Shown: positions 9,884-48,296, counted from the first letter of the stretch. The stretch is DNA of 64,000 bases from Phycisphaerae bacterium (GCA_963666835.2 CAXXGO010000001.1:512001-576000), one strand, 5' to 3'. Notes: generated by a model from the letters alone, not told the origin. Numbers and translations: made by a program.

Positions 9884-9989
9884 TCGGATGACTTGATAAA
9901 GGGCAACCCGGCCGCGCCGGGTGGCTCGTTGCAGAGTAAGCCGACGTGGTTGAGCACCTTCGGGTGTTTGACCACGTCGGCTTTTTTTT
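9884..9989 (+). ncRNA. Repeated cis-regulatory leader, copy 1 (61-nt hairpin overlapping intrinsic terminator 9940-9989)
   Basis: TCGGATGACTT..GGGCAACCCGG..CCGGGTGGCTCGTTG.AGAGTAAGCCGA followed by long stem-loop and T8; -10-like TATACT at 9825-9830. Confidence 0.85.
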
Positions 9990-10110
9990 GGGCTTGCAGT
10001 GACTTGAGGAGGTTGCAACCACCGAGAACCGTGAGGAGCGAAGTGAGTGCTGGTCCGTGCAGCTGGGGACGGGGCTGGGCAGGCACGAAGCGAGGTGCAC
10101 CGATACGAGA

Positions 10111-10980
10111 ATGACCATGGTACAGTTGATTCCCAAGTCTACGACGACACAACACAGGCGGAAGGACACTTCAGTGTCACGCGATGCCGCCGTATCACGC
10201 GTTGCAGACAGCTACGAGCTTTATGTCACCCAACACGTGCAATCGGTGTTTCGCCCAGGTGCAAAGTGGAGGTGCCCCGGGGTACAGATTGACGCGGCCG
10301 GGTTCATTAGCGGCCGACCCGGTGGAGATTTCTATATAGCTGCGCTCGGTCCGCACAACGAGGTGTCACTCGCAGTCGGAACCGTCAAGGGCAGTGGGTT
10401 GTTGCCGACGCTGTGCAAAGCGTTGATTGCTGCTCTCATCCATATGCAAGCGCGTCGAGCGTCTCCACCAAGCGTCCTCGTTCAGAAGGTCAGTTCTCTT
10501 TTGTGCGAGTTCAACAAAAATGCGCCGCGCCTCCCGGTCGTCTGCTCCATGTTCACCGTATTGATCGACAGGAGGCGGGAAACGTTTGAGTACTGCAGAG
10601 CTGGCGACTGCCGGCCGTTTCTGCAGACAGAGGACAGTCAGTGGTTCGAGCTTCCTCCCACCTGCCGAGGCCTAGGATGCGCGGCAGAGACAGACACCGA
10701 TGCCCATGCCTTGGTTATGGAGGCAAGCCAGATCGAGCGGCTCGCTGTCATTACTGCCGGTTGCTCAGGTAACGGGAAAGGAACGACTAATAATGTGGGT
10801 GCTGCTCTCCTATCGTCGATCCCTTGTGGATCGGCGAGCCGACAAGTACGCGCCATGTTAGCGAAGATCTGTCCGGAACGGTATCACGGCGCGTGTCCGG
10901 AGCGTGAAGTCTCGGTGGTCGTCGCAGATCTGCGCTACAGTGAAGACTCTGATGCGCCTGCGACAACCAGCCCGTGTTGA
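10111..10980 (+). CDS. SpoIIE/PP2C-family phosphatase-like protein, catalytically degenerate
   Basis: GGDFY and 'Y.RAG..P' motifs retained; other metal-binding Asp positions substituted. Confidence 0.65.
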   Translation: MTMVQLIPKSTTTQHRRKDTSVSRDAAVSRVADSYELYVTQHVQSVFRPGAKWRCPGVQIDAAGFISGRPGGDFYIAALGPHNEVSLAVGTVKGSGLLPTLCKALIAALIHMQARRASPPSVLVQKVSSLLCEFNKNAPRLPVVCSMFTVLIDRRRETFEYCRAGDCRPFLQTEDSQWFELPPTCRGLGCAAETDTDAHALVMEASQIERLAVITAGCSGNGKGTTNNVGAALLSSIPCGSASRQVRAMLAKICPERYHGACPEREVSVVVADLRYSEDSDAPATTSPC

Positions 10981-11072
10981 GGCGAGCGAACGCGTCAAGA
11001 CATCATGGAAGTCTGAACCAGTTTGGCGGACAGGTGGTGTCAGCCTGTCCCCGCATGGTGAGGTATAATGCG

Positions 11073-12545
11073 ATGAGAGTGTTGATGGTCTCAACGGCTA
11101 CGCCGAACACCTTCTGGAGCTACAAGCACGTCCTGTCGTTCATCTCAAAGAAGTCGTGTTTTCCGCCGCTGGGTTTGTTGACCGTCGCGGCGATGCTCCC
11201 AAAGCGCTGGGACCTCAAGCTCGTCGATCTCAACGTTACATCGCTCACCGACGCACAACTCGCGTGGGCGGATTACGTGTTTGTCTCGGCCATGCTCGTG
11301 CAGGCCGATTCCGCGCGGGAAGTCATCGCCCGGTGCAGCGAGCTGGGCAAGACCGTCGTTGCCGGCGGCCCCCTGTTCACCACCGGCCACGCGGGATTCC
11401 CCGAGGTGAAGCACTTCGTCCTCGGCGAGGCAGAAGACATTATGCCCGAACTCGTGGCTGACATGGTCTCCGGAAAGCTCAGGAAGTACTACCGTTGTGA
11501 AGAACGGCCCGATATTTGGAAGACGCCGGTACCCCGGTGGGACTTGATCAACCTCAAGCACTACGTCCTGATGCCGCTTCAGTTTTCGCGCGGCTGCCCG
11601 TTTGATTGCGAGTTCTGCGACATCATCGTGATGAACGGCCGAGTACCGCGCCTGAAAAGCAACGAGCAGATGATCCGCGAACTGGAGAGCCTTGTGGACG
11701 CAGGCTGGACCGACCCGATATTCATTGTGGACGACAACTTCATTGGAAATAGGACAAAGGTAAAGGCGTTCCTTCGTGAACTCATCGTGTGGCAGCAGCA
11801 ACGCAGCATCCGGCTGCAGTTCACGACTGAGGCCTCGTTGAACCTAGCGGACGATCCGGAACTGCTAGACCTGATGGTTCGTGCGGGCTTCAAGAAGGTC
11901 TTCGTCGGGATCGAAACGCCGCAGGAGGACAGCCTGCTCGAATGTGGAAAAGTCCAGAACGCCAAGCGCGACATGCTCAGCGCCGTCAAGGCGATCCAGA
12001 AGTCCGGTCTCGAGGTGATGGGTGGCTTCATCGTCGGATTCGACAGCGACAAGCCCAACATCTTCGAGCGACAGATCAGGTTTATCCAGGAGGCCGGCGT
12101 CGTGACGGCCATGGTCGGTCTGCTCCAGGCGCTGCCGGGGACGCGGCTCTTTTCGCGGCTCAGCCAGGAAGGTCGCATCCTTCACGACGCGAGCGGAAAC
12201 AACGTCGACGCAAGCCTGAATTTCGTCCCCAAGCTCGATCGCGAAGTGTTGATCGAAGGCTACCGCGCGCTCGTGAAACGCCTATACACGCCGAAGATGT
12301 ACTATCGGCGCATCCTGACGTTCCTGCGCGAGTATCGTCCGCAGGGGCGACGCTTCCACCTATCCTGGTGCGACGCGAAGGCGTTCTTCAAGTCGCTCTT
12401 GGTCATGGGTGTCCTGAGCCGCGGGCGACGGGAGTACTGGAAGTTCTTCACGCAGGCGTTGCTCTTCCACCGCCGCGCTTTCCCGGAGGCTATGACGCTC
12501 GCGATCATCGGATATCACTTTCGGCGCGTCGCGTCGGCGTTGTAG
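11073..12545 (+). CDS. B12-binding radical SAM protein (DUF4070 C-terminus)
   Basis: PPLGLLTVAAML, SRGCPFDCEFC, DDNFIG, GGFIVGFD. Confidence 0.92.
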   Translation: MRVLMVSTATPNTFWSYKHVLSFISKKSCFPPLGLLTVAAMLPKRWDLKLVDLNVTSLTDAQLAWADYVFVSAMLVQADSAREVIARCSELGKTVVAGGPLFTTGHAGFPEVKHFVLGEAEDIMPELVADMVSGKLRKYYRCEERPDIWKTPVPRWDLINLKHYVLMPLQFSRGCPFDCEFCDIIVMNGRVPRLKSNEQMIRELESLVDAGWTDPIFIVDDNFIGNRTKVKAFLRELIVWQQQRSIRLQFTTEASLNLADDPELLDLMVRAGFKKVFVGIETPQEDSLLECGKVQNAKRDMLSAVKAIQKSGLEVMGGFIVGFDSDKPNIFERQIRFIQEAGVVTAMVGLLQALPGTRLFSRLSQEGRILHDASGNNVDASLNFVPKLDREVLIEGYRALVKRLYTPKMYYRRILTFLREYRPQGRRFHLSWCDAKAFFKSLLVMGVLSRGRREYWKFFTQALLFHRRAFPEAMTLAIIGYHFRRVASAL

Positions 12546-12589
12546 AGCGAACCGGGTTCACTCGGAAATGGGGGCCATGAAGGCAGCGG

Positions 12590-12970
12590 CTACGGCTTCT
12601 TCTTCTCGCGCACGAGGGGCGACTCGGCCAGGGTGAAGACCACGATCTCTTCTCCGGTGGTGGTGCTGATGTCGTGGTGGAGGCTCACTACGTTGACGCC
12701 CGTGACCTCCAAGACCATCGATTCCAAGACCGCCCGGGCTGCCTCGATCAGCTGGATCCGCACTTCTTTGAGCAGGGCCCTACCTCTTTCGCTCGAGAGA
12801 GACTGGACGAGGTGCTGCTCGGCCGCGGTCAGAACGCCCACGAGACGGATCACGACGAGATCGCCAATCAGGTGGGACTGGATATTCTTCGGCCCGCGGC
12901 CCATGAACTCCTGTTCAAAACGCCTGATGCCCTCGCCAATGGCAGCCTCGATCTCTCCCTGTGTTTTCAT
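12590..12970 (-). CDS. DUF2294 / MpsC-family protein (subtype A, 'MKTQGEIEAA')
   Basis: 'FEQEFMGRGP...GVLTAAEQHL...LLKEVR...VVSLHHDISTTTGEEIVVFTL'. Confidence 0.88.
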   Translation of the reverse strand: MKTQGEIEAAIGEGIRRFEQEFMGRGPKNIQSHLIGDLVVIRLVGVLTAAEQHLVQSLSSERGRALLKEVRIQLIEAARAVLESMVLEVTGVNVVSLHHDISTTTGEEIVVFTLAESPLVREKKKP

Positions 12971-13199
12971 CGTGACCTCCAGCCTGCCCCGCGTAGCGGT
13001 CGGTTCTGGCACAGCTGAGATGTTCACTCGGCCACTAGCGCGACCCTCTGATCCCGTAACCTGCAGAACACGATATCGACCACCGGGCAATAAACCTACT
13101 CATTCTTGAGGAATCCGGCAACCATCGGCGCGCCGATGTAGTATACTATAGTAGTGAGCGAGGTCGCTGTGCGCTCTACGGCGGCTCCGGTCGAGGTTT

Positions 13200-13304
13200 T
13201 CGGATGACTTAATGAAGGGCAACCCGGCGCTGCCGGGGCGTCCGTTGAAGAGTAAGCCGACGTGGTTGAGCACCTTTGGGTGCTTGGCCGCGTCGGCTTT
13301 TTTT
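13200..13304 (+). ncRNA. Repeated cis-regulatory leader, copy 2 (terminator 13256-13304)
   Basis: Same motif as copy 1; TATACT at 13142-13147; upstream of hsp20 pair, divergent from DUF2294. Confidence 0.85.
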
Positions 13305-13362
13305 GTTCTTGGCGGCCGCGGTGGTGCGGACGAACGATCCTTTCGCAGAAAGGTGCAGAGAC

Positions 13363-13812
13363 ATGTTAAGAACCCGATGGCATCCTTTGGGCGTGGTGTG
13401 GCCGGAGATGAACCGTCTGCCGGCGGAAATGGAGCATAGGTTAGGCCGTTTTGTGATGAACGACCCGAGGCGGCTTGCCCACAGCGCCTATCCGCCGCTC
13501 AACCTCTGGGAGGACGACAACAACCTGTACGTCGAAGCGGAACTTCCCGAGCTTGAGGTGACCGACCTGGAGATCTTTGTCAAAGGCGACAACGAGCTGT
13601 CGATCAAAGGCGAGCGCAAGCAACCCGAACTGGGAGAGGGCAAGTGGCATCGTCGGGAGCGAGGCCATGGTGAGTTCTCGCGGGTGGGCGTGTTGCCTCA
13701 CTACGTGGACAGCGACAAGGTCACGGCCAAATTCAGGCACGGTGTGTTGACCATCACGTTGCCGAAGCGAAAGGAGGCCCAGGCGCGGCGAATCGAGGCC
13801 AAAGCCACCTAA
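13363..13812 (+). CDS. Hsp20/alpha-crystallin small heat-shock protein
   Basis: YPPLNLWED, AELP, LSIKGERK, GVLTITLPK, C-terminal I-x-A. Confidence 0.93.
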   Translation: MLRTRWHPLGVVWPEMNRLPAEMEHRLGRFVMNDPRRLAHSAYPPLNLWEDDNNLYVEAELPELEVTDLEIFVKGDNELSIKGERKQPELGEGKWHRRERGHGEFSRVGVLPHYVDSDKVTAKFRHGVLTITLPKRKEAQARRIEAKAT

Positions 13813-13971
13813 TTCCGACACCGGCCGCGTCTCGCCCGCCTTCCACGTCGGCAGGTTGGGTCGAAAGTGGCCATGTCACGGGAGGTGGGCCTCGACACGA
13901 AATCGGCGGTCAATGCGAGCGCGAAACAACGTTTTGGAACGTATTTTCTTGACAAAGTGGAGGTGCAAACC

Positions 13972-14367
13972 ATGACACCAACCTTAACGACGGAAGAAAC
14001 CCACAGCGACGTTGCCCCCGTGGAACGTACACTCGGTGGGATTACTTTCAGTCCCCGGTTCGACATCTGGGAGAACGACGACGAGACGATTCTGTACGGC
14101 GATCTACCCGGTGTCATGCCGAGGGATTTGGATGTTAGCTTCGAAAAGCCCGTGCTGACGATTCACGGCAAAGTCAGTCCGCGCCACGATGACATCAAGT
14201 TCCTGCACGGCGAATACGGAATCGGCGATTTTCACCGTACGTTCACCATCGGCGAAGCGATCGACACGGAGAGGATCTCCGCCGAATTCAAGAACGGTGT
14301 CCTGACCGTGCATTTGCCGAAGGACGAGAAGGTGAAACCGCGTGAGATCGAGGTCAAATGCCGCTGA
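13972..14367 (+). CDS. Hsp20/alpha-crystallin small heat-shock protein
   Basis: P.FDIWE, DLPGV, NGVLTVHLPK, IEV; RBS GGAGG. Confidence 0.93.
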   Translation: MTPTLTTEETHSDVAPVERTLGGITFSPRFDIWENDDETILYGDLPGVMPRDLDVSFEKPVLTIHGKVSPRHDDIKFLHGEYGIGDFHRTFTIGEAIDTERISAEFKNGVLTVHLPKDEKVKPREIEVKCR

Positions 14368-14616
14368 TGCAAAGACCTCTGAGGAATCGTATCTGGTTCG
14401 AAATCGGAGCCGCTGGCGCCGAAGGCAAAGGACGCTGCGCTGAGCCCTCCTCGTGTCACCACAATGAAAGGTCTTCCAGTTGCTCCATTCTGATCATCCT
14501 GCTGCCTACGGGACGCACGTGATCACCAGCGCAGCGAGATCGTCTGCGCTCAAGAAGGAGGTCTGGTTATGACTCGATTCGCTTGGATGACTGATTGATC
14601 TAAAAGGAGAATCTTC

Positions 14617-15603
14617 ATGGATCCTATCGTGTATGCAGTGATCTTCGCCGTTGTCGTTCCTTTAGTGGTCTTTTTCTCGGGCATCAGGCTTGTTCGTCCA
14701 ACACACAAGGGACTCGTCGAGAGGCTCGGCAGGTACCGGCGCTTCGCGAATCCGGGTTTCAACTGGATCATCCCTGTCATTGACAGAATGATCAAGGTCA
14801 ACACGACGGAGCAGATGGTTGATGCCCAGCCGCAAGAGATCATCACCAACGACAATCTCAACGCCAGGGTGGATGCCCAAGTCTACTTCAAAGTGAAGGA
14901 CGACGAGGAAAGCGTCAAGAGTTCCCAGTACCACGTCAACAACTACCAGAGTCAGATTGTCAGCCTGGCTCGGACGACACTCCGCAATATCATCGGCACG
15001 TTAACCCTGAAATCCGCCAACAGCGAACGAGACAACATCAACGGTGCGCTTCTGACTACGTTGAGCAAGGAAACCATGAGCTGGGGAATGGCGATTGTCA
15101 GGACCGAACTGAAGGAAATCGACCCTCCCAAGGATGTCCAGGAGACGATGAACAAGGTTGTCAAAGCGGAGAACGAGAAGGTAGCCGCCTTGGATTTCGC
15201 CAACGCGGTCGAGAGACAGGCGGATGGGGAAAAGAGGGCGGAGATCAAGAAGGCCGAAGGCATCAGGCAGGCCAAGATTCTTGCGGCGGAGGGCGAGGCC
15301 CAGGCAATAAAGCTCGTGAATGAGGCGGCGAACACATACTTCATTGGAAACGCACAGCTTCTGAGGAAGCTGGAGGCCCTCGAGAGCTCATTGAGCCACA
15401 ATGCCAAGATCGTCATTCCGTCAGGCTGTGAACTGGTCAATGTCATCGGAGAGATGGCCGGCGTTTTGCCGCTGGCGGGCGGAAACGGACGACGCCGAAG
15501 CGAAGACGGAAAACACGGGTCCGCGGAGTTGGCGCGGGCGGCCCAGCGGGTGGTCAAGCCTTCTGTTATGAGGGAGGAGGTCCGCTCGCAGCCTGCGCTG
15601 TAG
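14617..15603 (+). CDS. SPFH (band 7/stomatin-like) membrane protein
   Basis: N-terminal TM segment, LVERLG, IIPVID, ARTTLRNIIG, IDPP. Confidence 0.92.
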   Translation: MDPIVYAVIFAVVVPLVVFFSGIRLVRPTHKGLVERLGRYRRFANPGFNWIIPVIDRMIKVNTTEQMVDAQPQEIITNDNLNARVDAQVYFKVKDDEESVKSSQYHVNNYQSQIVSLARTTLRNIIGTLTLKSANSERDNINGALLTTLSKETMSWGMAIVRTELKEIDPPKDVQETMNKVVKAENEKVAALDFANAVERQADGEKRAEIKKAEGIRQAKILAAEGEAQAIKLVNEAANTYFIGNAQLLRKLEALESSLSHNAKIVIPSGCELVNVIGEMAGVLPLAGGNGRRRSEDGKHGSAELARAAQRVVKPSVMREEVRSQPAL

Positions 15604-15685
15604 ATGCTGGTCGGCATTCATGCGGTCAGTAGAGGATGTACGGAGCCACCGGTGACGTTTGATTCGGCTCCGATCACAGTCTGAG

Positions 15686-15788
15686 TCGGATGACTTAATG
15701 AAGGGCAACCTGGCCGTGCCGGGGGGCTCGTTGAAGAGTAAGCCGGCGTGGTCAGACACCTTATGGTGTCCCACCGCGCCGGCTTTTT
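15686..15788 (+). ncRNA. Repeated cis-regulatory leader, copy 3 (terminator 15742-15788), intra-operonic
   Basis: Same motif with compensatory changes in the terminator stem; directly upstream of DUF2294. Confidence 0.85.
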
Positions 15789-15836
15789 CTCGCTTGCAGT
15801 GGTAGTGGACGGCCGTAGCGGCCAGGGAGGAACGCC

Positions 15837-16256
15837 ATGGACAAACCCAATTCAACAATGGCGCGCCAGATTGCCCAGGCGGCCAGTGTTTTCGAGCAGC
15901 AGAGGACGGGCAACACACCCAAGTCCGTGACCGTGGTGCTGAGCGACACCACGCTGGTGATCACGCTGCACGGGGCCTTGTCGGAGGCCGAGAAGGCCCT
16001 GGCGAGAAGTCCCGAGGGTGCCGCTCAGATACAAGACTTTCACCGACAGCTGTTCGCCAACGCCTCCGAGTCGTTGCGACAGGAGATCAAGAGGATTACT
16101 GGCGTGGAGGTGCGTGAGGCTACCGCGGAAGTCGAGCCGGCTACCGGCACCGTGGTAGGCGTGTTCACAAGCGGCACGACGGTACAGGTATACCAGCTCG
16201 CGCATGGCGTACCCACGGACACCTGGAACGGGAGTGAACGAGGCGACCAATCATGA
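15837..16256 (+). CDS. DUF2294 / MpsC-family protein (subtype B, 'MARQIAQAA')
   Basis: 'FEQQRTGNTPKSVTVVLSDTTLVITLHGALSEAEKALA...EIKRITGVEV'. Confidence 0.85.
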   Translation: MDKPNSTMARQIAQAASVFEQQRTGNTPKSVTVVLSDTTLVITLHGALSEAEKALARSPEGAAQIQDFHRQLFANASESLRQEIKRITGVEVREATAEVEPATGTVVGVFTSGTTVQVYQLAHGVPTDTWNGSERGDQS

Positions 16257-16491
16257 GATCGGGGGTTCTACCACGTTCCTTTTGTCGAGGAAGAACCGTA
16301 AATCCGTGGTTGCCGGATGTTCCAACTGCGTCGGGCGCCTTCTGCGGATCATGGTGCTCGTGTTTTATGACGGGACCGCAAGTCCGGGCTTTGAAGCCGG
16401 TGACGGTTTCCCTGTCCATCGTTGGGAGGTGTGCGAACGGATTCGCGCCGGTGTCGGGCTGGAAGCAGGTTGACTGACAAGGAGAACACCG

Positions 16492-16935
16492 ATGGGTAAG
16501 ACGAACGTCGAACGACGAAACCACGCGTGGTTTGCCCTGGCAGACGCAGAGCATTGTCGGCTCTTGTGCTGCCGCTTGACTGAACAAGGCACGCCACACG
16601 TTGACGAGTATGAAGCGATCGAGAACAAGTTTCCAGAACGTGAACACCTGCGGCCGCAGACCGGGGACGGCATGACCCATGATGTCGAGGAGAAGGAGCG
16701 ACGTTTCACGGGGAAGATCGTGGAAAGGTTGCAGGAGAACGCCAAGAAGCACGAGATCGATTGCCTGGTCATCTTCGCGCCCGCTCGCATGCTCGGCGAA
16801 CTCCGGAAGGCTTCCTCCCGACTGCTACCGGGACACCTTAAGGAACTCGAAGGCAATCTGATGCGCCTCGATGCCGGCCAGTTGGCAGAACATCCGATGG
16901 TCCGCGACCTGGTGCGGACCACGCAAGAGCCATGA
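16492..16935 (+). CDS. Host-attachment/baeRF12-like protein
   Basis: N-terminal 'W..LADA..CRL', 'ERRF...I.E.L', 'LVIFAPARMLGELRK'. Confidence 0.7.
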   Translation: MGKTNVERRNHAWFALADAEHCRLLCCRLTEQGTPHVDEYEAIENKFPEREHLRPQTGDGMTHDVEEKERRFTGKIVERLQENAKKHEIDCLVIFAPARMLGELRKASSRLLPGHLKELEGNLMRLDAGQLAEHPMVRDLVRTTQEP

Positions 16936-17100
16936 TGTTCGGAGCCGTAATCATGAGCACGCTCTGCGGGGCGAACCGGTGGCCGTATGCAATCCGCATT
17001 GTGAGGACGTTGAGGGCTTGAACAGACACGGAGACCAGCTCATGCAACAACGAAAATCTGGAATTGGAGCGGAGCTGCGACATCACATGGAGTGCCTTTG

Positions 17101-20451: not shown

Positions 20452-20742
20452 ATGGACGCGACACCAATAAACACCGTGTCAGGAATCGGTAGCGGCGAAG
20501 CCTCGGGCCGCGTCGGTCTCAACACGGAGAAGGCGATCACTGCAAAGCCTCCGACGGGCTCGCCCGTCCAAGATACAGTGGAGCTATCCCCGGTAGGAAT
20601 AGCGCTTTCGCAGGCTGAGGTTCAATCTCGCCCGACGGCCGCGCGGATAAGTGAGATCCGCGCCGAGATCAGAGCCGGGACGTTTCTGACGCCAGAACGC
20701 ATGGACGGGATCGTCGAGAGGTTGCTCGAGATTCTCGGTTGA
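20452..20742 (+). CDS. FlgM-like anti-sigma factor family protein
   Basis: 'DTVELS...RISEIRAEIRAGTF.TPER'. Confidence 0.65.
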   Translation: MDATPINTVSGIGSGEASGRVGLNTEKAITAKPPTGSPVQDTVELSPVGIALSQAEVQSRPTAARISEIRAEIRAGTFLTPERMDGIVERLLEILG

Positions 20743-20879
20743 GCGAGCAGAATCGAGAGTCAGGCCGCGGCGCGATGGATGTGTTATCTCGCAGCCCGGC
20801 AGGCCGAATTCATGGAAGCCAAGGACGCGGAGTTCCACCCGGGCTCACGTGTCCCGCGGCATTGCATAAGGATCTGAAG

Positions 20880-21917
20880 ATGGAGCATACGTCGAGTCCT
20901 GTCGAGTTGGTCTTACGGCACTACGCAACCCGTTATCGAGGATGGATTATATTCGGCCTGGTTTTCTTTCTGGCAGTATGGGGCGGGGTCAGTGTGTTCT
21001 ACTCGGTGGAGGCGGACAGCGAAGGAGTGGTTCTTCGCTTCGGAAAGTACTCCAAGACGACGCTTCCGGGGCTGCACACGAAGTGGCCCTGGCCGATCGA
21101 TGCGGTGATGGTCGTGCCGGTACAGCAGATTCAGACGCTGGAGTTTGGGTTCGGGACAATTGATCCGGGCCAGGTCACCCGGTACGCCCTGCAAACGCCG
21201 GAACACGAAACGATCGCCCGCATGCTAACCGGCGATCTGAACTTGGCCCACGTGGAATGGATCGTCCAGTACCGCATCAAGGATGCACAACACTACTTGT
21301 TCAGGATCGGAGGAGACCACAGCAACAAGGTCGCGGTGGAGAACACGATCCGGAACGCCGCCGAAGCAGTCCTGCGAAAACTGGTCGGCGACCGGAGTGT
21401 CGACGAAGTCATCACGAGGGGGCGCGAGGAGATCGCCAGCGAAGCCAAACGGGAGATTCAGGAGATGATTGACAACTTCGAAGCCGGCGTTGAGGTCGTC
21501 ACCGTCAAGCTCCAGTCAGCTACGCCGCCCGAGGCAGTCAAAGATGCGTTCGATGCGGTCAACCGCGCCCGGCAGAACAAGGAGCGGGTGGTCAACGAGG
21601 CCCGCGGGGAACGCAACCGCGTCATTCCTGCCGCCCGGGGACAACGTGATCGTGTGATCTCGGAAGCGGAGGGATACCGGGAGCGCGTGGTACCTGAAAT
21701 GACCGGGCGTGCAAACGCGTTTCTCGCCCAGTTGGCGGAGTACGAGAAGGCGCCGGAGGTCACTCGCACGCGCCTCTACCTGGAAGCGATGGAGGAGACG
21801 CTGGCCCAGGTAGACGGCATCACCGTGATCGACGAGTCGGTTCGCGGGGTACTTCCGATGTTGAATCTAAGTCCCGCCGACCCACCGGCCAAAGGCCAGG
21901 AAGGGGGTGGACGATGA
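20880..21917 (+). CDS. hflK: FtsH protease modulator HflK
   Basis: GVVLRFGK, MLTGDLN, AFDAVNRA, YEKAPEVTRTRLYLE. Confidence 0.93.
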   Translation: MEHTSSPVELVLRHYATRYRGWIIFGLVFFLAVWGGVSVFYSVEADSEGVVLRFGKYSKTTLPGLHTKWPWPIDAVMVVPVQQIQTLEFGFGTIDPGQVTRYALQTPEHETIARMLTGDLNLAHVEWIVQYRIKDAQHYLFRIGGDHSNKVAVENTIRNAAEAVLRKLVGDRSVDEVITRGREEIASEAKREIQEMIDNFEAGVEVVTVKLQSATPPEAVKDAFDAVNRARQNKERVVNEARGERNRVIPAARGQRDRVISEAEGYRERVVPEMTGRANAFLAQLAEYEKAPEVTRTRLYLEAMEETLAQVDGITVIDESVRGVLPMLNLSPADPPAKGQEGGGR

Positions 21918-32818: not shown

Positions 32819-33005
32819 TTGGTGGGACGACAACACTTCGTTTGTCACGCCCGGGCGAGTCGCTTTTCGGCCCAAACGAGCCGTTTTGATGCGAGGAATC
32901 AGCGCATATTTCAGGAATCGGGGAGACTATCGTAGCGCCGATGTGGTATAATGGTAGTAGTAAGCGGGGTTGCCGTACATCTTGCCGCGGCCCCGGTTGA
33001 GGTTT

Positions 33006-33109
33006 TCGGATGACTTGATGAAGGGCAACCCGGCGGCGCCGGGTGGCTCGTTGAAGAGTAAGCCGACGTGGTTGCGCACCTTCGGGTGCTTGGCCGCGTC
33101 GGCTTTTTT
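33006..33109 (+). ncRNA. Repeated cis-regulatory leader, copy 4 (terminator 33062-33109)
   Basis: Same motif; TG-G-TATAAT at 32944-32952. Confidence 0.85.
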
Positions 33110-33158
33110 ATTGATTTTGCCTGACGTCAGGATCATTCGGTCCACAAGGACGAACCTG

Positions 33159-33245
33159 ATGCATGAAATCGATTCGGCCATGGCAAAGCAGATCGGTCGG
33201 GTGGCTGCGACTTTTGAGCGGCAGACGACCGGCCGGGTCCCGGAC
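33159..33245 (+). pseudogene. N-terminal fragment of DUF2294 subtype B
   Basis: 'MHEIDSAMAKQIGRVAATFERQTTGRVP' aligns by eye with 'MDKPNSTMARQIAQAASVFEQQRTGNTP' at 15837. Confidence 0.7.
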
Positions 33246-33365
33246 CTGCAACGCAGAAAAGCTGAACGGTACGCCGGTGTACAGGCCCAGAGCGCGACAC
33301 TTGAACGATCATCCGCTCCAGTTCTTCATCGGCGCAAAATGGCTGGGGTTTCTCGTCGACACCGG

Positions 33366-33380
33366 CCTCCGGGTTATGAG
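33366..33380 (-). mobile_element. tRNA-Met anticodon-arm fragment (relic att site)
   Basis: CCTCCGGGTTATGAG identical to 9257-9271 and 39777-39791. Confidence 0.5.
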
Positions 33381-34386
33381 AGTGACGATGGCGAAAATCG
33401 TAACCTACTGCCACACCCGGACTTATGCGTATGCTCTTGTATGTTCGAAGGTAGGCCAGCACAACACGAGTGCGCCTCAACATCTGGGTGATCTTACCGC
33501 GTGCCCGAGCATCGACACGTCGACGCGACGAATTGCCCGGGACCACACCTCGCCGGTGATACGGCGGGCCCCCGACATTTTGGGCCGCTGCCCGTGGACC
33601 CGCGAGATGTTGACCCACCAGGGAACATATAAATGATGTCGGCTTGACGTGTGACGAACTGGAAATGTCGAATGAGCTGGTTCCATACCATCCTCAGGTT
33701 TCTCTTCCTGGTGCCTGGCTGGCATCAGGTGAGGTTATTGCTCAATCGCCTGACCAGCGGTCCACCACGAGGTCAAACGCGATCGGTGGTCGAGAAGTCA
33801 CACATTGGACAAAGTTGCCGATGCTGGGAGATAAGGCCCGCGAGCACGGCTTCGAATTGCCGAACCCGCTGGGTGTCGCGGGCAGCTTCTACCTGGAGCG
33901 GCAGGACTTCGAAATTGCGGATCCTGATTCTCTACCTCGCTCCGGTGGTTAACTCCTTTAATGTCAGTGGTTTGGCAGCTACGGCCGCGATAACAAGGCG
34001 ATCGAAGAGTTTTGCTTCCATCCAGCGACGGTTGGCCCGATAGGTGAACGCGGCCAGGTAACGGTCGAGGTGTTTGGGCGAAACGCTGTGATATGTGCCC
34101 ACAATCATCCGCTTCAGGTTGCCGATGAAGGTGTGAACCCAGGGGAAAATTTGAACCGCATTCTTCCCACCGCCCGTCACGATTGCCTCGTGCTCGTACC
34201 CGGCCTTGGCCACTGAAACGTAACTTCCCCATCCGTCCGTCCGGAGACATGAGCCCTTTGCTATGTGCTTCGTCGTGAAGCCCTTCAGGCTCCGAGCGTC
34301 GACGCTTTTCAGTCCCTGAATGGCGATTCGCTTAGGCCGGTCGTTCTCATCAAGCTCGACGGCCACTCCCACTGTGTTGCCGGCGG

Positions 34387-39852: not shown

Positions 39853-40048
39853 CTAGGGACACGACACGAGCTTGGGAACGCGCCCAAAATGCCAGAAGGC
39901 GTTCTCCAGGCATCGGATGTATGCCTCCGCCGTCTGCCGGTACACCACTTCGCTGTACGCCTTCCGCGAGTGGCTCAGGACGATGCGAAACAGGTGCGGG
40001 CGTTTGCGTTTGCCATCGGGCAGGATCACCGGGGCGCCGGTGCCGAAG
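39853..40048 (-). pseudogene. Internal fragment of a second IS21 transposase
   Basis: 'FGTGAP...HLFRIVLSHSRKAYSE...CLENAFWHFG.VP'. Confidence 0.75.
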
Positions 40049-40291: not shown

Positions 40292-40472
40292 CTCAGCTTC
40301 TCGTGCACGGGTTCATCGTATTGCTCCTCGAACCCTCTGGCGCAAGCATCTTCGTCGATTGTCGGCAGGCCTTGGCGGGCACCGTCGCCTATTGCCTTAC
40401 GATCGAACTTCGCGGATTCGCCGGCCATGACCGGAACACGAGTTCAACAGTGCCACTCGGCGCGAGCGATGT

Positions 40473-40928
40473 TCAGGTTGCTTCGGCTGAGGCGTACTTC
40501 TCAAACACGACCAAGTTCTCCGCGGTACGTGAATCCCAGCGGGTCCCGACGATGTTGTAGCCTCGGTGTATCGCCAGTATCAGCATCGCACGATGGTTGT
40601 TATAGCACTCCAGGCGGATCATCTCGTAACCCCGATCGCAGACCCAGGCATACTCCGCATCCATAAGTTGCGTTGCGACACCCAACCGGCGGGCATCGGG
40701 CAGCACGCCGTACAGCCAGCTGTAGAACGTTGACGGCCTGAGCTCGTATCCGCACGAGAACCCCACTGGCCGCTTATCCAACTCTGCCACCATAACGAGT
40801 GAATTGTGATGCTGCAGACGCTGCTTGAAGAACTTGGCATCCACGTGTGGTTTGAAGACTTCATTGTACAGGTCGCTGATCAGCTCATACTCGGCGGGCC
40901 CGACTATCTCGATCTTTGCAGTTGCCAT
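40473..40928 (-). CDS. GNAT acetyltransferase
   Basis: 'GVLPDARRLGVATQLM' acetyl-CoA motif. Confidence 0.88.
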   Translation of the reverse strand: MATAKIEIVGPAEYELISDLYNEVFKPHVDAKFFKQRLQHHNSLVMVAELDKRPVGFSCGYELRPSTFYSWLYGVLPDARRLGVATQLMDAEYAWVCDRGYEMIRLECYNNHRAMLILAIHRGYNIVGTRWDSRTAENLVVFEKYASAEAT

Positions 40929-41015
40929 GCGAAGGCTCTCCTCAGCTACGGTTAGGCTCGCTGATGCGATCTCGGTTGATCCTAATGTCTAACGCTCAGC
41001 GGTCACGCACTCCAT

Positions 41016-42326: not shown

Positions 42327-42423
42327 TGGAACAACGCTCCGTAATCCTACTGTGCTCAAGATCGCGAGTGACTTGTCCCAGACGCGAACCAACCATCAGC
42401 TCTTGCCATATACGCTGAACTCA

Positions 42424-43461
42424 TCACCTGATCTCCTTGCGTCCCACAAGCCGTTGTCCCCGGCGTACTTTGCTGCCGCAGGCATCAAGCCATCTCGTGC
42501 GGACTTCCTGCTCGAGCTCGTCCGAATCCATCTCGGACATCGGTACCGATATCTTCCCGCCGGCGCGATGTAGATGCCCGCCAAAGTGCCCTAATCCACG
42601 CAGGACAGGATTCAGTAGGGTTAGCGAGGTGTGCTTATCGCCTTTTGATCTTGCCGAGAAGAGGAAGTCATCGCCAATCCTGGCCCCACAAAGGACGTAC
42701 TGGAGGCCATCGCACCGGATGAGAAGGTCAGCCATTTCTCCAACAATCTCCGGGGCTGTAATTCGAGGCAGGAAACACACCGCCGAGTCCGCGTAGACCA
42801 GAACGCTGTCCAGGCCGAGCAGCAATTCCTCGTAGTAATACCTAGGAAGCGGCGGATTTTCGATCTCGGAGAGGACGCCATACTCCACGAATCCGGAAAG
42901 CCACCGCAAGGCGGTATGATCCACTCGGGACAGTGCTTTACGGGCGCCGATCATCTCCGTACGAATGGCATACAGAAGGGCAGTAGCGACAGCAGGAGGA
43001 GGCTCGATCCGTTGTTCGCGCATGTATTCCGTCGCGATACTCGCCGAAGCCGTGACCTTGGGGCGCATGTCGCGGAACGGAAGTCGAAAGCCGTCGCTCT
43101 TTGATTCATGATGATCAATGACGGCAACGGGCGCTTTATCCCCGCCAAGCAAATGATTGACAGATGCGGGTGAACAGTCAACCAACACGGTTGCCGTGCG
43201 CACGCCCGGGTCAATCTCCTCGACAAGCTCGATGGGCGGCTGAAGTAACTTGAGGAGCTGGACGTTCTCGGCTCGGAGGACAGGTCCGCGCCCGAGCAGG
43301 CGTACAGGTTTATGCAGCCGGCTGCCCACGAGCAGAAGAAGGGCCCAGCCCGTGGCGATGGCATCCGGATCCGGGTTGTTGTGCATAATCACCATCGTGT
43401 CGTCGTATTCATCGAGGACGCTCAGCAGACGATCGGAACGTTTCCGTTTCTGGCTTGCCAT
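42424..43461 (-). CDS. DHH-family phosphoesterase
   Basis: HNNPDPDA, LVD, IDHH, GGH..RAGG. Confidence 0.88.
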   Translation of the reverse strand: MASQKRKRSDRLLSVLDEYDDTMVIMHNNPDPDAIATGWALLLLVGSRLHKPVRLLGRGPVLRAENVQLLKLLQPPIELVEEIDPGVRTATVLVDCSPASVNHLLGGDKAPVAVIDHHESKSDGFRLPFRDMRPKVTASASIATEYMREQRIEPPPAVATALLYAIRTEMIGARKALSRVDHTALRWLSGFVEYGVLSEIENPPLPRYYYEELLLGLDSVLVYADSAVCFLPRITAPEIVGEMADLLIRCDGLQYVLCGARIGDDFLFSARSKGDKHTSLTLLNPVLRGLGHFGGHLHRAGGKISVPMSEMDSDELEQEVRTRWLDACGSKVRRGQRLVGRKEIR

Positions 43462-43544
43462 CACAATCACCTTGGTTCCCAAAGACCGATGCTATCCGCA
43501 CGTCGGCTACGCAAAACTAACCTGGACGAGCGCCCGAAGCATCG

Positions 43545-45020
43545 CTATTGCCCGTCCGGCGGTAAAACGCCTCCCTCGGCGCTTTCACTTATGATGTCCA
43601 ATTTCACATTTACCTCCGTAGGCTGATCGCCCTCTAGCCGCATGTGCTGCGGCACGACCAGCTTGGCTTTGAGCTCCGAGGCAGCAGTGAGTCGGCTGAG
43701 ATCGATCGTCTCCGTGTAGATCTTTGTTGTCGACGACTTGTACGAACGCCAGATGAGCACCTGCACCGTATCGGGTATCACCTTGATTTCCCGTTGCCTC
43801 AGCTCCTTTGGGAGGCGCCCCTCGGTTCGTAGTTCGACAACCACACGTGCTCGCACCCAGGTGTGGACCCCGAATTGGACGATCCGAGGTGCAGACCGAA
43901 ACAGCGCCAGATTCGAGGGGAGCTTGACATGCGACTCGTCGATGACGATCTGCTGTGGCCCCTCCTGGACGTTATTTAGGTCAAGGGACACCTTGAGTGT
44001 GCTGGGCGCCAGCAAGTTGAAGGCACGCTCAAAGCCGGCTAGTGTAATCCGGGCCTCCGTTGGGGCGGAATCGTCGATGTCCATCGTGTCCGGCAGGTTG
44101 CGGTATTCAACGGGTACGACAAACGTCTTCTGAACGGTTTCGGCATCGAAGCTGATGAGACACCAGGCGACGCAAGCCACAAGAACAGCTGCTAGCTTCA
44201 GTCCGAGATTCTGGATAGGTAACCGCTGCCGACCATCGGTCGCTTCACGAGGCCGCACACGCTGCAAAAAACGATCCAGGCGCTGCTTGAGTTCTACGGG
44301 CGAGTCGACTTTCCTGAGTTTTCCGGCCTCTGCGATGCTAACTTCCCCACGTTCTTCCGACACCACGACAACCATCGCGTCACAAAGTTCGGACAGGCCC
44401 ACCGCCGCGCTGTGTCGCGTTCCTCGGACGTTAATCTCCCTTATGTTCTCGGATAGCGGCAAGTGTGCTGCGAACTGAGATATACGATCCTGGTCGATGA
44501 TCACCGCGCCATCATGGCCCATGGAGTGCGGGTCGAAGATGCTGTCGAGCAGCGCCTTACTGATTTGTGCATCGACGGCAACGCTGCCTCGCACGTGTCG
44601 ATCGAGGGCTTCCGTGCCTCGAACGACGAGAAGAGCTCCAGTCTTCTTCTTCGCCAAATCGAACGCGATCTCAACAAGAACGTCTAGATTTTCATCCACT
44701 GTTTGAGTGCGGAATCGGTGGAGATTTCCCAGCAATGCAAGGCGCGCAAAGGACCTGCGCAGATCTTGCTGGAACACCACAATTGCGGCGATCGCGGCGA
44801 AGGCCAGGCCCGCCTGGAATATGGCGGTAGTCATGTAGAGATCAAACGCCCGCGCCAAAAGGTACACGATGGTGAGCACGCCGATGCCGACCAAAATCTG
44901 TCGGGATGCGGTCGACTTGAACCACATGAAGAAGGCGTAGATTAACAACGAAACCAGCGCGATGTCCGCCGCATCGGCGAGCCGGAATGTTCGCTGCAAT
45001 TGCTCAAGGATCGACATCAT
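43545..45020 (-). CDS. Membrane diadenylate cyclase (DisA_N/CdaA-like) fused to YbbR-like domains
   Basis: 3 N-terminal TM segments, VFQQDLRR, HDGA, GTRHSAA, VSEERG, further TM segment then beta-rich repeats. Confidence 0.88.
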   Translation of the reverse strand: MMSILEQLQRTFRLADAADIALVSLLIYAFFMWFKSTASRQILVGIGVLTIVYLLARAFDLYMTTAIFQAGLAFAAIAAIVVFQQDLRRSFARLALLGNLHRFRTQTVDENLDVLVEIAFDLAKKKTGALLVVRGTEALDRHVRGSVAVDAQISKALLDSIFDPHSMGHDGAVIIDQDRISQFAAHLPLSENIREINVRGTRHSAAVGLSELCDAMVVVVSEERGEVSIAEAGKLRKVDSPVELKQRLDRFLQRVRPREATDGRQRLPIQNLGLKLAAVLVACVAWCLISFDAETVQKTFVVPVEYRNLPDTMDIDDSAPTEARITLAGFERAFNLLAPSTLKVSLDLNNVQEGPQQIVIDESHVKLPSNLALFRSAPRIVQFGVHTWVRARVVVELRTEGRLPKELRQREIKVIPDTVQVLIWRSYKSSTTKIYTETIDLSRLTAASELKAKLVVPQHMRLEGDQPTEVNVKLDIISESAEGGVLPPDGQ

Positions 45021-45114
45021 GTTCTGACCTCATCTGCAACCGAACCTGGAATGCCTGGTGTCGGCGGGCAGCCCATCGGCGTCAAGCAGACTGTCGATAC
45101 AGCTCCGAGGTTCG

Positions 45115-46170
45115 TCACTGGTCCTTGCCCTGCTCTTTCGTTCGGTGAATCCGTCCGGCTGCGCCTCGACGCGCGAGTGCCTGCATGTCTTCTGCCAAAT
45201 CCGTTTCATCGACGATCTCTCTGCCGATGAGCGACTCGATTACATCCTCCAGGGTGACAATGCCGGCGAGGCCGCCGTACTCGTCGACTACGCCGAAAAT
45301 GTGTTGCCGCTGCTTTATGAACTCGTTGAGTAAGAGGTGTCCTGGTGCGCTTTCCGGAACGAAATGAAGCGGCTTGCACAGAGTCTCCGCCGCCGCGTCG
45401 AATTGATCTGCGGCAAGCTGCCCGACGACGTCGTCCTTGAGCACAAAGCCGATCCACTTCTCGGGATCATCGCTGTCAAAAACAGGGACACGCGTATGTT
45501 GCCAGGCGGGGGCAATATCTCTCAGCTCTCCGACGGTCGTCCGTGAAGAAGTACGGGTGACCACCGTGCGGGGTGTCATGATGTCTTTGGCGGTAACGTC
45601 GTTGAGTTGCAGGACATTGTTGATCAGTTCCGCCTCGGACGGCAGTATGCTGCCCTCCTCCGCACTTATTGCCGCGAAATGCCACACTTCCTCCTCCGAC
45701 GCGATCTGCGGTGCCTCGTTGGGTTGAAAGACGCGCGCTACGCGCTGACTCAGCCAAACGAGCGGAAACAGCCCCTTTATCACCGCGTCAAGGGGGTGGC
45801 TGAGCGCTCGTGCAATCGGTCGACTGAACGCGACGCCGGCCACCTTGGGAATAATCTCGGAAAGAAACAACACGGCGATCGTGAAACTCGCTGCGAACCA
45901 GATCACGGATGCGTCACCGAAGAGGTACCTCGCCTGCGCCCCTGCGACCGCCGCGCCCGCCGTATTCGCGACGGTGTTGAGTATGAGGATGGCCGTGATT
46001 GGCCGCTCCATGTTCTTCTTGAACTTCTCGAGCAGCGTGCCCGCGGCATGTCCGCCTTCGACGAGCTGGCGAACATACGGCATTCTGACCGCGTACAATG
46101 CGGCCTCGCTCAGCGAACACAGGGCGGAGACGACCAAGACAACAATGATTGAGGTGATGAGAATTGTCAC
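45115..46170 (-). CDS. CNNM/DUF21 + CBS domain protein (CorB/hemolysin-like)
   Basis: CSLSEAAL, ILILNT, SEIIPK, IMTPR, VDEYGG..GIVTLED. Confidence 0.9.
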   Translation of the reverse strand: MTILITSIIVVLVVSALCSLSEAALYAVRMPYVRQLVEGGHAAGTLLEKFKKNMERPITAILILNTVANTAGAAVAGAQARYLFGDASVIWFAASFTIAVLFLSEIIPKVAGVAFSRPIARALSHPLDAVIKGLFPLVWLSQRVARVFQPNEAPQIASEEEVWHFAAISAEEGSILPSEAELINNVLQLNDVTAKDIMTPRTVVTRTSSRTTVGELRDIAPAWQHTRVPVFDSDDPEKWIGFVLKDDVVGQLAADQFDAAAETLCKPLHFVPESAPGHLLLNEFIKQRQHIFGVVDEYGGLAGIVTLEDVIESLIGREIVDETDLAEDMQALARRGAAGRIHRTKEQGKDQ

Positions 46171-47052
46171 CGTCCTTCTCCTCCACGACTCCGGATCATT
46201 CCGTTGTTCTTCTTGCGGGTCGTAAGACCGCGAGTCAGCGTCCGATCTAACATCGTGCGATCGGTGAGGTAGACAGCCGGGGTTGGCAGATGGCGGGTCG
46301 TGGGGGCAACCGCCGCCACCAGACCGGCGATCGTGTTCGAGGCACCCGCGGGGGCCTGGGCCGCGACGAACACGCCCCAGGTTGGCGCGCCCATGATCTG
46401 GCGGCACGCCCGGTCGTACAGCAAGGATCGGGACCCGACCTCACCTCGACCTTCCAGAATCCGATCTTCGGGTTGCATGCCGCCCATCATCGCAAAGACA
46501 CCGTTCCGGCCGCCCAGAGCTGAACCTGGCTGACGCTCCGGGAGCCCTGGATTAGACCCGTGAGGGGGGCGGCTGGCAACGTGGGTCGTCCCGATTCGCG
46601 GCTCGTGGGGTCCCTCCGGCCGCTGCAGGTGACGGTCTCCGCGCTCTGATTGCCGATTACCTTATGAGGCAGCGTCGATTGCGTATTGGCGGGCTCTCAG
46701 GCTGATCGCGGGCTACGTCAGAGGCTCGAGATGCCGCGCGTGAGGAGGATCGTGCTCAAAGCATGGGCATCCCTGGATCCAGGAGCCCGCCCTGCCCCAG
46801 GCGTCGGGGCCTCTGTACAATCGGGTCAGGCTCAAGATCCAGGGCTTGAGATTCGGGACAGCCCCACTATGACTCGCACGGTTCGACGCGGCGGGGAGTC
46901 GGATGAGAAAGCCGTCAGCCAGCGGGGCCCGTAATCAGGCGCGATTGGGGGCAGCCGGCGTTGCTCGTTTTCGAGCATAGACGCACATTAGGGCGGCTGC
47001 GATCGGTTGGCCACGTGACCGCGTCGCAGGTTCAGTGCGTTGGGAGGCCCAT

Positions 47053-47705
47053 ATGTCGAAGTTCCGCGTTGCACACTTGTCGTTGTTCGTTGCCATCCAA
47101 CTGGCGATCTTGGCTGGGTTTGTGCTGGCCATTGTCGAGCGGCACTGGCTCGACGCATTCGCGGTGGCCTGCATCATGTTGTTGACTCTCTTGCCGGCTC
47201 TCCTCCAACGACGATTCCACGTCTTGATCCCGCCGGAGTTCGAGTTGCTGGTCATCATTTTTGTCTTCGCTTCGCTGTTCCTCGGTGAAGTCCGGGGCTA
47301 CTACCTGCGCTTCTGGTGGTGGGACTTGGTACTGCACGCCGGCTCTGCCCTGCTTCTCGGCATGCTCGGCTTCATGCTGGTGTATGTGCTGAACGAGGAG
47401 CGCCGAATCCAGCTTCACATGAGACCGGGGTTTGTGGCGTTCTTCTCATTCACGTTTTCCCTGGGGGTCGGCGCCCTTTGTGGGAGATCTTCGAGTTCGG
47501 AATGGATGGCATCTTCGGCCTGAACATGCAAAAGAGCGGTCTCGTCGACACGATGTGGGACCTGATTGTCGATGCTGCCGGCGCGCTAATCGTCGCGCTG
47601 CTGGGCTATGTCTGGATAAGGAGCGGCACGGAGTCCTTCGTATCGCGCTGGATCGCCAAATTTGTGCAAGCCAACCCTCAGTTCTTCGAGCGCCGTAAGC
47701 GATGA
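47053..47705 (+). pseudogene. Membrane protein (DUF2238-like), frameshifted near 47478
   Basis: 'WWWDLVLH' in one frame continues as 'LWEIFEF...GLVDTMWDLIVD' in another. Confidence 0.7.
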
Positions 47706-47719
47706 GCCAAGCCCTTGGG

Positions 47720-47958
47720 TTGAGCCTCGTCTCGACCAGCTGGGTCCTCGCTTGCTTGAGCAGGTCCCGGTCCCTTTTCGGTCGGCAGCGACAGGACCAG
47801 TTGCTGTTCAGCCGCGGTCAGAACGCCCAGGACGGAAACCATGACGAGGTGGGGAATCAAGTATACCTGGATATTCTCGTGCTCTGGCACATAAACTTGT
47901 GTTCAAAACGCCTGATGCCCTCGCATACGGCGGCCTCGATCTCTCCCTGTGTTTTCAT
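47720..47958 (-). pseudogene. Degenerate DUF2294 subtype A
   Basis: 'MKTQGEIEAAVCEGIRRFE' then 'GVLTAAEQQLV' in a shifted frame; paralogous to 12590-12970. Confidence 0.8.
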
Positions 47959-48190
47959 TGTGACCCCGCACGTGTCCTGCCCAGCGGTTGACGCGTTGCC
48001 AGGCCGAGACGGCGACTCCGCCACACCCGAAACCCTCGCCTGTCGGCTCCTTGCACGACAGGACGTCGAACCATGGACGCAGAATCTACCTACCTTTCCA
48101 AGAATCTGGCTACCGCTGGCGAGGCGAGGACGTATAATATAGCAGTGAGCGGGGTCGCGGCGTACCATGCGGCGGGTCCGACCGCTGTTC

Positions 48191-48296
48191 TCGGATGACT
48201 TAATGAAGGGCAACCCGGCGCTGCCGGGTGGCCCGTTGAAGAGTAAGCCGACGTGGTTGAGCACTTACGGGTGCTTGGCCGCGTCGGCTTTTTTTT
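48191..48296 (+). ncRNA. Repeated cis-regulatory leader, copy 5 (terminator 48247-48296)
   Basis: Same motif; TATAAT at 48133-48138; upstream of groEL. Confidence 0.85.

Follow-up and report, generated by a model that had tools for sequence, protein, structure and literature searches.

The stretch of DNA analyzed here, hereafter the window, comprises 64,000 nucleotides (nt) from a Phycisphaerae bacterium (GCA_963666835.2, CAXXGO010000001.1:512001-576000). Its plus strand carries five intergenic copies of a structured leader RNA, which stand in sense orientation ahead of a PP2C-like gene, a pair of hsp20 genes, a DUF2294 (MpsC) gene, a DUF2294 fragment and groEL (Table 1). A preliminary description, made from the sequence alone, had placed the conserved parts of these copies at 9884, 13200, 15686, 33006 and 48191 and had named the genes behind them; direct reading of the sequence bore out the positions, and Pfam the genes. 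We report that the leader represents an uncatalogued multi-copy RNA family that marks a general-stress-like regulon.

MAFFT aligned the first 61 nt of the five copies without a gap. GCCGA lies at +56 in every copy, and a G+C-rich stem of 20-21 base pairs (bp) stands directly before a run of five to eight U, upstream of an open reading frame (ORF) on the same strand, as is characteristic of an attenuator. The alignment also revealed the compensatory change in the terminator of copy 3 (GCCGGC/GCCGGC). Conservation reaches about 95 nt upstream, where a -10-like TATAAT/TATACT box is followed by a G+C-rich hairpin of variable sequence. The order of the unit is a -10-like box, the variable 5' hairpin, the conserved irregular hairpin of 61 nt and a terminator of about 20 bp with its U-tract. 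In the five window copies it ends some 40-70 nt ahead of the start codons and leaves the ribosome-binding site uncovered. The 5' hairpin has modest statistical support (mean z = -0.9; z < -1.5 in 45 of 154 copies) and we therefore do not count it as established, though it is present in most copies viewed. Copy 5 folded alone gave a z-score of -7.2 against shuffles. A covariance model (R1), built from 35 sequences of 13 genomes, recovered the five copies at 116-130 bits (E 1e-35 to 1e-39) and found no sixth in the window, the remaining matches being weak reverse-strand echoes of the hairpins.

An inverted repeat, CATCG-N6-CGATG (13123-13138, CATCGGCGCGCCGATG), directly precedes the -10-like box of copy 2. 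The same repeat, likewise ahead of a -10-like box, occurs at 32925-32941 and in loci L004, L010 and L012. It is confined to this genome and close relatives and may serve as a DNA operator through which a second regulator acts on the promoter.

Covariation in the Leader RNA

The proposal that the leader is a structured RNA gained support from the wider family, in which the apical helices and the terminator show compensatory changes. In an alignment of 89 distinct sequences, which was fitted to R1 and in this respect favors the model, such changes were found in 29 of 38 modelled pairs, with 4/4 in the inner helix GGGC/GYYC, 7/7 in the apical helix and 16/20 in the terminator. There, 89.4% of the cells pair, compared to 30-52% with slid partners, and none of 500 shuffles reached the observed values. 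An independent MAFFT alignment of 35 sequences gave covariation support in the same direction. At least six T within 8 nt were found at the end of 153 of 155 distinct copies.

About 40 of the 61 positions are nearly invariant across the order, including the unpaired AUG/AAG loop, the 5' GAA bulge and a single A. A minority variant replaces the U-A/U-G pairs of the second helix by what we read as tandem G-A/A-G. The basal UCGG/CCGA helix is invariant and pairs in 69-71 of 71 copies, while ACU/AGU hardly varies. Since UCGG/CCGA is invariant, covariation can speak neither for nor against this helix, and it is likewise silent on ACU/AGU.

Predicted Terminator/Antiterminator Switch

The preliminary description further held that the conserved hairpin and the terminator are mutually exclusive folds. 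The overlap at CCGA and the folding energetics agree with this, while the basal helix itself, invariant as it is, is a part that we infer. When the RNA was cut before the 3' arm of the terminator, the minimum-energy fold was the full hairpin with UCGG/CCGA in four of the five window copies. For the whole leader it was the terminator, which was 6-13 kcal/mol better than a fold in which the basal helix was forced. In the forced fold, the remaining stem of 13-14 bp ends 6-7 nt before the U-tract, and in copies 3 and 4 it is broken by a mismatch or internal loop. The (G)UCGG segment on the 5' side has the same letters as the 3' arm of the terminator, and both therefore compete for CCGAC. Directly 5' of UCGG, two further positions pair with the adjoining terminator bases (56/71 and 37/71 copies, respectively), so that the competing helix often grows to 6-7 bp.

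The leader is probably a cis-acting ON-type switch between terminator and antiterminator. A dedicated promoter would start an RNA of about 155 nt, in which the variable 5' hairpin would fold first and the conserved 61-nt hairpin after it. The last strand of this hairpin (CCGA, often CCGACG) would double as the first strand of the 20-21-bp intrinsic terminator. By default, the 3' arm of the terminator (GUCGG) would displace the short basal helix, so that transcription stops at the U-tract and the gene is OFF. An effector that clamps the base of the hairpin, namely UCGG/CCGA together with the invariant AUG/AAG internal loop, would block the bottom 6-7 pairs of the terminator. This would part the residual stem from the U-tract, and the polymerase would read through into the gene (ON).

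Distribution of the Leader Family

Five copies, as first counted, is correct for the window and falls short for the genome. BLAST and R1 together revealed nine true copies in its 6.0 Mb (113-130 bits), eight of which lie within 70 kb on one strand and the ninth elsewhere. R1 found the element in 66 of 151 sampled genomes of the window's order and in 5 of 150 further genomes drawn from across the phylum. We report genomes with a match rather than copy numbers, because weak reverse-strand echoes of the hairpins inflate the counts per genome about two-fold; a genome holds up to about ten copies. Scanning one genome per prokaryote species with a degenerate pattern yielded at least 130 stretches. 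We took 80 of these as loci, all of which are titled Planctomycetota except one labelled Bryobacteraceae. Full-length R1 matches were obtained in 80 of the 80 loci (74-124 bits). Among these loci, the family is almost restricted to records of Planctomycetota.

The leader had not been recognized as a known Rfam family, and indeed the whole window gave no match at the gathering thresholds of Rfam 15 (4227 models). A permissive scan of 47900-48500 (E <= 10) returned only rows far under threshold, the best being P17 sRNA on the opposite strand with 26 bits against a cut-off of 45. Literature searches, the coverage of which excluded most subscription journals, found no account of the leader RNA. 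The Rhodopirellula-1 motif of Weinberg et al. (2010) was considered as a candidate and rejected, since the rows of its supplementary alignment differ in sequence and shape (PMC2864571).

In L175 (957-1080 and 1089-1212, minus strand), an Ice-binding-like gene is preceded by two complete leaders in tandem, with 9 nt between them. Two leaders within about 500 nt were also seen in other loci, such as L150 and L173.

MpsC Genes Beside the Leader

The leader had also been linked to DUF2294 genes, and in the wider genome sets this tie proved strong both in neighborhood and in co-occurrence. The two intact MpsC genes of the window exceed the curated cut-off of PF10057 (23 bits). All six PF10057 genes of the genome adjoin a copy of the leader: three high-scoring ones, which we call type A (MpsC-A), are divergent from it, and three of type B (MpsC-B) lie directly behind it. 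Neighbors were counted for the 142 distinct copies that had 500 nt or more of flank on either side. MpsC genes lie both behind and divergently upstream in 24 copies, only behind in 20, only divergently upstream in 25 and co-directionally upstream in 6, so that 75 copies overall have an adjacent MpsC gene. Among the 151 genomes of the order, 53 have leader and MpsC, 13 the leader only, 11 MpsC only and 74 neither; the association is overstated by these numbers because related genomes are not independent.

Three of the 11 genomes with MpsC only were viewed, and all three contain a diverged leader-like hairpin with a terminator directly behind MpsC-A. These variants (L236:1285-1392, L237:1140-1248 and L238:860-947, all on the minus strand) score 17-22 bits to R1. 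In L236 the diverged leader is preceded by a TTGACA-N17-TATGAT promoter.

Type A was never found behind the leader and is therefore no target. In 25 copies it adjoins a leader that is followed by something other than MpsC, and this persistence, whatever gene follows, is the pattern expected of a regulator. The type A paralogue would accordingly be the regulator, while type B, which follows the leader more often than any other gene, would itself be regulated or act as a feedback partner. That MpsC is the effector of the switch is a possibility we take seriously, if one still short of probable.

Genes Behind the Leader

In the 35 copies from 13 genomes, a Pfam-supported gene on the same strand lies within about 450 nt of 31, and in 17 of the 31 it is MpsC. 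The nine copies of the genome studied here precede the PP2C-like gene with a radical-SAM gene, two hsp20 pairs, three MpsC-B genes, a broken MpsC-B gene, a Transgly_assoc gene and groEL. Two of the three MpsC-B genes are followed by a Host_attach/baeRF12 gene. For copies without MpsC directly downstream, we submitted 150 of 160 candidate ORFs to Pfam. The families found include CsbD, YflT, BON, DUF892, ferritin-like, KaiC, sigma-70-family, hibernation factor, PRC-barrel and DUF2934, and furthermore Ice-binding-like, ArsD/ArsA and assorted transporters and enzymes. Families such as CsbD, YflT, BON, DUF892 and ferritin-like proteins typify the general-stress regulons of sigma-B, RpoS and EcfG. 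The genes behind the leader are thus a candidate general-stress set.

Ice-binding-like (PF11999) genes recur behind the leader (L084, L130, L163, L175, L240), and one genome in which no MpsC gene was detected has two of them one after the other. Genes of the sigma-70 family, with regions 2 and 4 in ORF segments of 313-348 amino acids (aa), lie behind leaders in L054, L158 and L177, which may place the switch upstream of a sigma factor in a regulatory cascade. In the stress island of the window, Pfam identified two SPFH/Band_7 genes (14617-15603 and 20739-21917, plus strand), neither of which is preceded by its own leader. A small ORF (20452-20742, plus strand) that lies between a DUF378 gene and the second of the Band_7 genes shows weak similarity to FlgM, the anti-sigma-28 factor, with 18.7 bits against a cut-off of 25.

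A CsrA-like ORF lies behind MpsC-B in the window. It is degenerate, lacks the MLVLSRK start, carries VHRWEV in place of VHREEV and scores 45 bits to a local profile of intact paralogues. Such intact paralogues occupy the same place in other genomes (45-58 bits; L010:2087-2398, L012, L014, L017, L024 and L032), and in 21 of 137 copies the MpsC-B gene behind the leader is succeeded by an intact CsrA-like gene. One canonical CsrA is encoded elsewhere in the genome studied here. Complex prediction for MpsC-B with a CsrA-like dimer scored 0.00, a result that gives no answer and is evidence neither way.

Part of the array has been duplicated. The module MpsC-A, leader, hsp20 pair, leader, MpsC-B and Host_attach is present twice, about 63 kb apart (Table 1). 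Loci L008 and L009 yield identical ORFs, in line with a segmental duplication within a genome.

Table 1. Leader copies, neighboring genes and the duplicated module, with strand and supporting data.
Feature	Position	Strand	Details
Leader copy 1	9825-9990	+	Sequence reading, alignment, fold, R1, terminator scan
Copy 1, -10-like box	9825-9830	+	TATACT
Copy 1, variable 5' hairpin	~9840-9875	+	
Copy 1, conserved hairpin	9884-9944	+	
Copy 1, terminator stem	9938-9983	+	20 pairs, then 8 U; terminator scan
Copy 1, R1 match	9873-9996	+	129.3 bits
PP2C/SpoIIE-like phosphatase	10057-10980	+	Behind copy 1; Pfam
B12-binding radical-SAM protein with DUF4070	10974-12545	+	Behind copy 1; Pfam
MpsC/DUF2294, type A	12590-13090	-	115.4 bits to PF10057; divergent from copy 2 promoter
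Leader copy 2	13142-13305	+	Alignment, R1, terminator scan
Copy 2, -10-like box	13142-13147	+	TATACT
Copy 2, conserved hairpin	13200-13260	+	
Copy 2, terminator stem	13254-13299	+	Then 7 U
Copy 2, R1 match	13189-13312	+	127.4 bits
hsp20 genes (two)	13363-13812, 13867-14367	+	Behind copy 2; Pfam HSP20
Leader copy 3	15630-15790	+	Alignment, R1
Copy 3, conserved hairpin	15686-15746	+	
Copy 3, terminator		+	Compensatory GCCGGC/GCCGGC base, then UUUUUCUC
Copy 3, R1 match	15675-15798	+	115.8 bits
MpsC/DUF2294, type B	15837-16256	+	78.5 bits; ~40 nt behind copy 3 R1 match
Degenerate CsrA-like ORF	16204-16473	+	Behind MpsC-B; 15.2 bits to Pfam CsrA (PF02599), below the cut-off of 27
Host_attach/baeRF_family12 gene	16492-16935	+	Same string as MpsC-B; Pfam
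Leader copy 4	32950-33110	+	
Copy 4, conserved hairpin	33006-33066	+	Then terminator and 6 U
Copy 4, R1 match	32995-33118	+	127.6 bits
Frameshifted MpsC-B remnant	33159-33491	+	Behind copy 4; only first 28 aa align with MpsC
Leader copy 5	48133-48298	+	Alignment, fold, R1
Copy 5, -10-like box	48133-48138	+	TATAAT
Copy 5, 5' hairpin	~48141-48190	+	
Copy 5, conserved hairpin	48191-48251	+	
Copy 5, terminator		+	21 bp, then 8 U
Copy 5, R1 match	48180-48303	+	130 bits
groEL (Cpn60)	48361-49980	+	Behind copy 5; Pfam
Second module copy	Genome contig C1, 587248-591306		Corresponds to window 12590-16935; extra leader and Transgly_assoc gene

Discussion

Taken as a whole, our data are best explained by an attenuation leader of stress genes with MpsC as its likeliest effector, a reading in which we place moderate confidence. 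We infer here that the basal helix forms, that the switch works in the ON direction and that MpsC binds the RNA. Several results weigh against this reading. UCGG/CCGA, the sole helix on which the switch depends, has no covariation behind it, and its conservation could reflect contact with a protein or ligand, or the terminator alone. The leader-specific promoter is a putative one, deduced from the -10-like box and its conservation, and a consensus scan of this genome found neither a sigma-70-type promoter nor a -35 box upstream of the leaders. RNA-library contigs, which cannot reveal RNA ends, cover the leader in one of four runs (X3), while those of the other three cover only groEL; stretches lacking contigs carry no information. 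In X3, a salt-marsh RNA library, contigs over 48073-48466 cover the leader and overlap a contig that enters groEL. With 11-12 differences from the window, they stem from relatives or paralogues, and one loose end corresponds to the sequence upstream of the MpsC-B-type copy.

The protein itself adds to these difficulties. MpsC has no recognized RNA-binding domain and no sequence relative in the PDB, and by our residue count its sequence is net acidic. Its AlphaFold2 model reached a predicted local distance difference test (pLDDT) score of 83. Foldseek returned no match at E <= 0.001, and the ESM Atlas none that was usable. In an all-against-all structure alignment Z did not exceed 6.7, and V4R, TRAPP and KH-like rows reached Z 4-5; we assign no fold to MpsC because these scores lie inside the noise range stated for the aligner. 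In Staphylococcus aureus, deletion of mpsC is reported to cause no phenotype, and MpsC was not considered a component of MpsAB, a bicarbonate transporter (PMC6689103).

Five genomes with solid leaders (completeness 90, 91, 93, 99 and 99%), in which a profile search up to E 0.1 detected no MpsC gene, argue that MpsC is not obligatory. Three of these were viewed; no obvious substitute regulator was found near the leaders, and the genes behind them are Ice-binding-like genes or unnamed ORFs. Likewise, 67 of the 142 copies have no adjacent MpsC gene. Both observations speak for a small ligand, the main rival to MpsC as effector. The hairpin would then be a true riboswitch that binds a small molecule or ion raised by stress, such as an alarmone, a second messenger or a cation, and MpsC genes would be only the genes most often regulated by it, or co-located with it. 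The near-invariant unpaired positions (AUG/AAG, the GAA bulge and the single A) are also typical of aptamers, and a tandem arrangement such as that of the two leaders in L175 is known among riboswitches. However, a riboswitch would give no reason for MpsC-A to lie beside, and not behind, the leader in 49 + 6 of 142 copies. Moreover, the diverged leader variant still follows MpsC-A in three of three genomes viewed; the RNA diverges while MpsC-A stays, and a protein partner therefore fits better than a fixed ligand pocket. The leader is also a single rod-like hairpin without a multi-helix junction. We regard a riboswitch as unlikely, while keeping it as the principal alternative.

Further alternatives are less likely still. 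The terminated RNA of about 155 nt could itself be the product, a small RNA present in many copies and acting in trans, for example by titrating an RNA-binding protein such as a CsrA-like paralogue or MpsC, with read-through being incidental. A promoter-like box, 5' hairpin and strong terminator in each unit are usual for a stable small RNA, up to about ten copies occur per genome, and the invariant CGGAUGA holds GGA, a triplet contained in CsrA sites; the intact CsrA-like genes after MpsC-B point in the same direction. Yet the unit has a single GGA, which lies within a helix, the CsrA-like gene of this genome is degenerate and the support for the 5' hairpin is modest. The sense orientation close ahead of a gene, seen in 31 of 35 copies and in 9 of 9 in this genome (one pseudogene counted), would be needless for action in trans, and we consider a small RNA quite improbable. 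Very improbable is a dispersed cassette or repeat of promoter plus terminator, spread by duplication, in which the hairpins are only terminators or insulators and nothing switches. The array does owe part of its extent to segmental duplication, as the identical ORFs of L008 and L009 and the doubled stretch from MpsC-A to MpsC-B reveal, but the same 61-nt core precedes unrelated genes with unrelated flanks in many genera, compensatory changes and invariant unpaired positions are present, and a terminator between promoter and gene is sensible only with regulated read-through. Least probable of all is an RNA thermometer that opens on heat shock, like ROSE or fourU before hsp20. While hsp20 and groEL are among the genes behind the leader, most of these genes are not heat-shock genes and the ribosome-binding site is uncovered. 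No thermoregulator family of Rfam matched; the only such row was Lambda_thermo with 13 bits against a cut-off of 50. Judging from the folds, a rise in temperature would be expected to open the weak basal helix earlier than the 20-bp terminator, the opposite of what induction requires.

The stress-gene attenuation leader with MpsC as candidate effector thus remains our preferred reading. In its fullest form, MpsC/DUF2294 would be a new family of RNA-binding antitermination factors that run the general stress response of Planctomycetota after initiation, through one leader in up to about ten operons per genome; this extension is speculative, and more doubtful than the effector role by itself. 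If it is true, control by leader and MpsC would replace an alternative sigma factor or act on top of it, and DUF2294 would receive its first function. The analysis in any case proposes a concrete and testable function for DUF2294/MpsC. For a phylum in which gene regulation is largely unexplored, it would contribute a widespread structured RNA family not yet in the catalogues, and it marks out, straight from sequence, a candidate planctomycete general-stress regulon, apparently gated by transcription termination and not by promoter choice alone.

Comparison With Known Systems

In the BglG/SacY/LicT systems, a protein bound to the ribonucleic antiterminator (RAT) hairpin prevents termination, and the gene of the regulator itself can follow such a leader. 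The planctomycete leader resembles these in having one irregular hairpin whose 3' strand overlaps the 5' arm of an intrinsic terminator. In contrast, it is twice as long as RAT and unrelated in sequence, MpsC belongs to a different family and the genes are a stress set, not one for sugar use. CAT_RBD (PF03123) had no match in this genome, which is 92% complete, while four control genomes were positive. HutP, TRAP and PyrR are small proteins that decide between termination and read-through. As with HutP and the hut terminator, TRAP and PyrR, a small protein is encoded beside a terminator-bearing leader here as well. However, the leader has no obvious array of UAG or GAG triplet repeats, and RNA binding by MpsC is only proposed. 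HutP (PF09021) gave no match in this genome, with the Bacillus subtilis control being positive. For ANTAR (PF03861) there was no match in this genome, but the controls gave none either; the leader differs from ANTAR targets in being one long hairpin and not two small hexaloop hairpins.

In the adenine riboswitch pbuE, an ON switch, the 3' strand of the helix that closes the aptamer also belongs to the terminator, and stabilization of this helix leads to read-through. The leader is comparable to such ON riboswitches, and to rod-like ion riboswitches (the DUF1646 motif for Na+ and the nhaA-I motif for Li+), in its rod-like hairpin, conserved internal loops and predicted closing strand shared with the terminator. 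It differs in that no Rfam family matched and that MpsC-A as persistent neighbor points to a protein factor. The thermometers ROSE and fourU mask the ribosome-binding site and have no terminator. They likewise form structured 5' leaders before small heat-shock genes, whereas the planctomycete leader ends well before the start codon, carries a terminator and has no Rfam match. Rhodopirellula-1 is also a candidate cis-regulatory RNA from planctomycetes, but the rows of its supplementary alignment (AACAA..CGGAU..GAAC...CGUU) have another sequence and shape (PMC2864571). By analogy, the leader appears to work in the manner of the RAT/BglG, HutP and PyrR leaders or of an ON riboswitch, yet no Rfam family, CAT protein or HutP protein places it with any of them.

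With respect to content, the genes behind the leader overlap with the regulons of sigma-B in Bacillus, RpoS in Escherichia coli and EcfG in Alphaproteobacteria. The shared families comprise CsbD, YflT, OsmY-like BON, Dps/ferritin-like and YciE/F-like DUF892 proteins as well as the hibernation factor, Transgly_assoc, PRC-barrel and small heat-shock proteins. Unlike in those regulons, the shared mark here is not only a promoter motif, but an RNA leader with a terminator, and this implies control after initiation.

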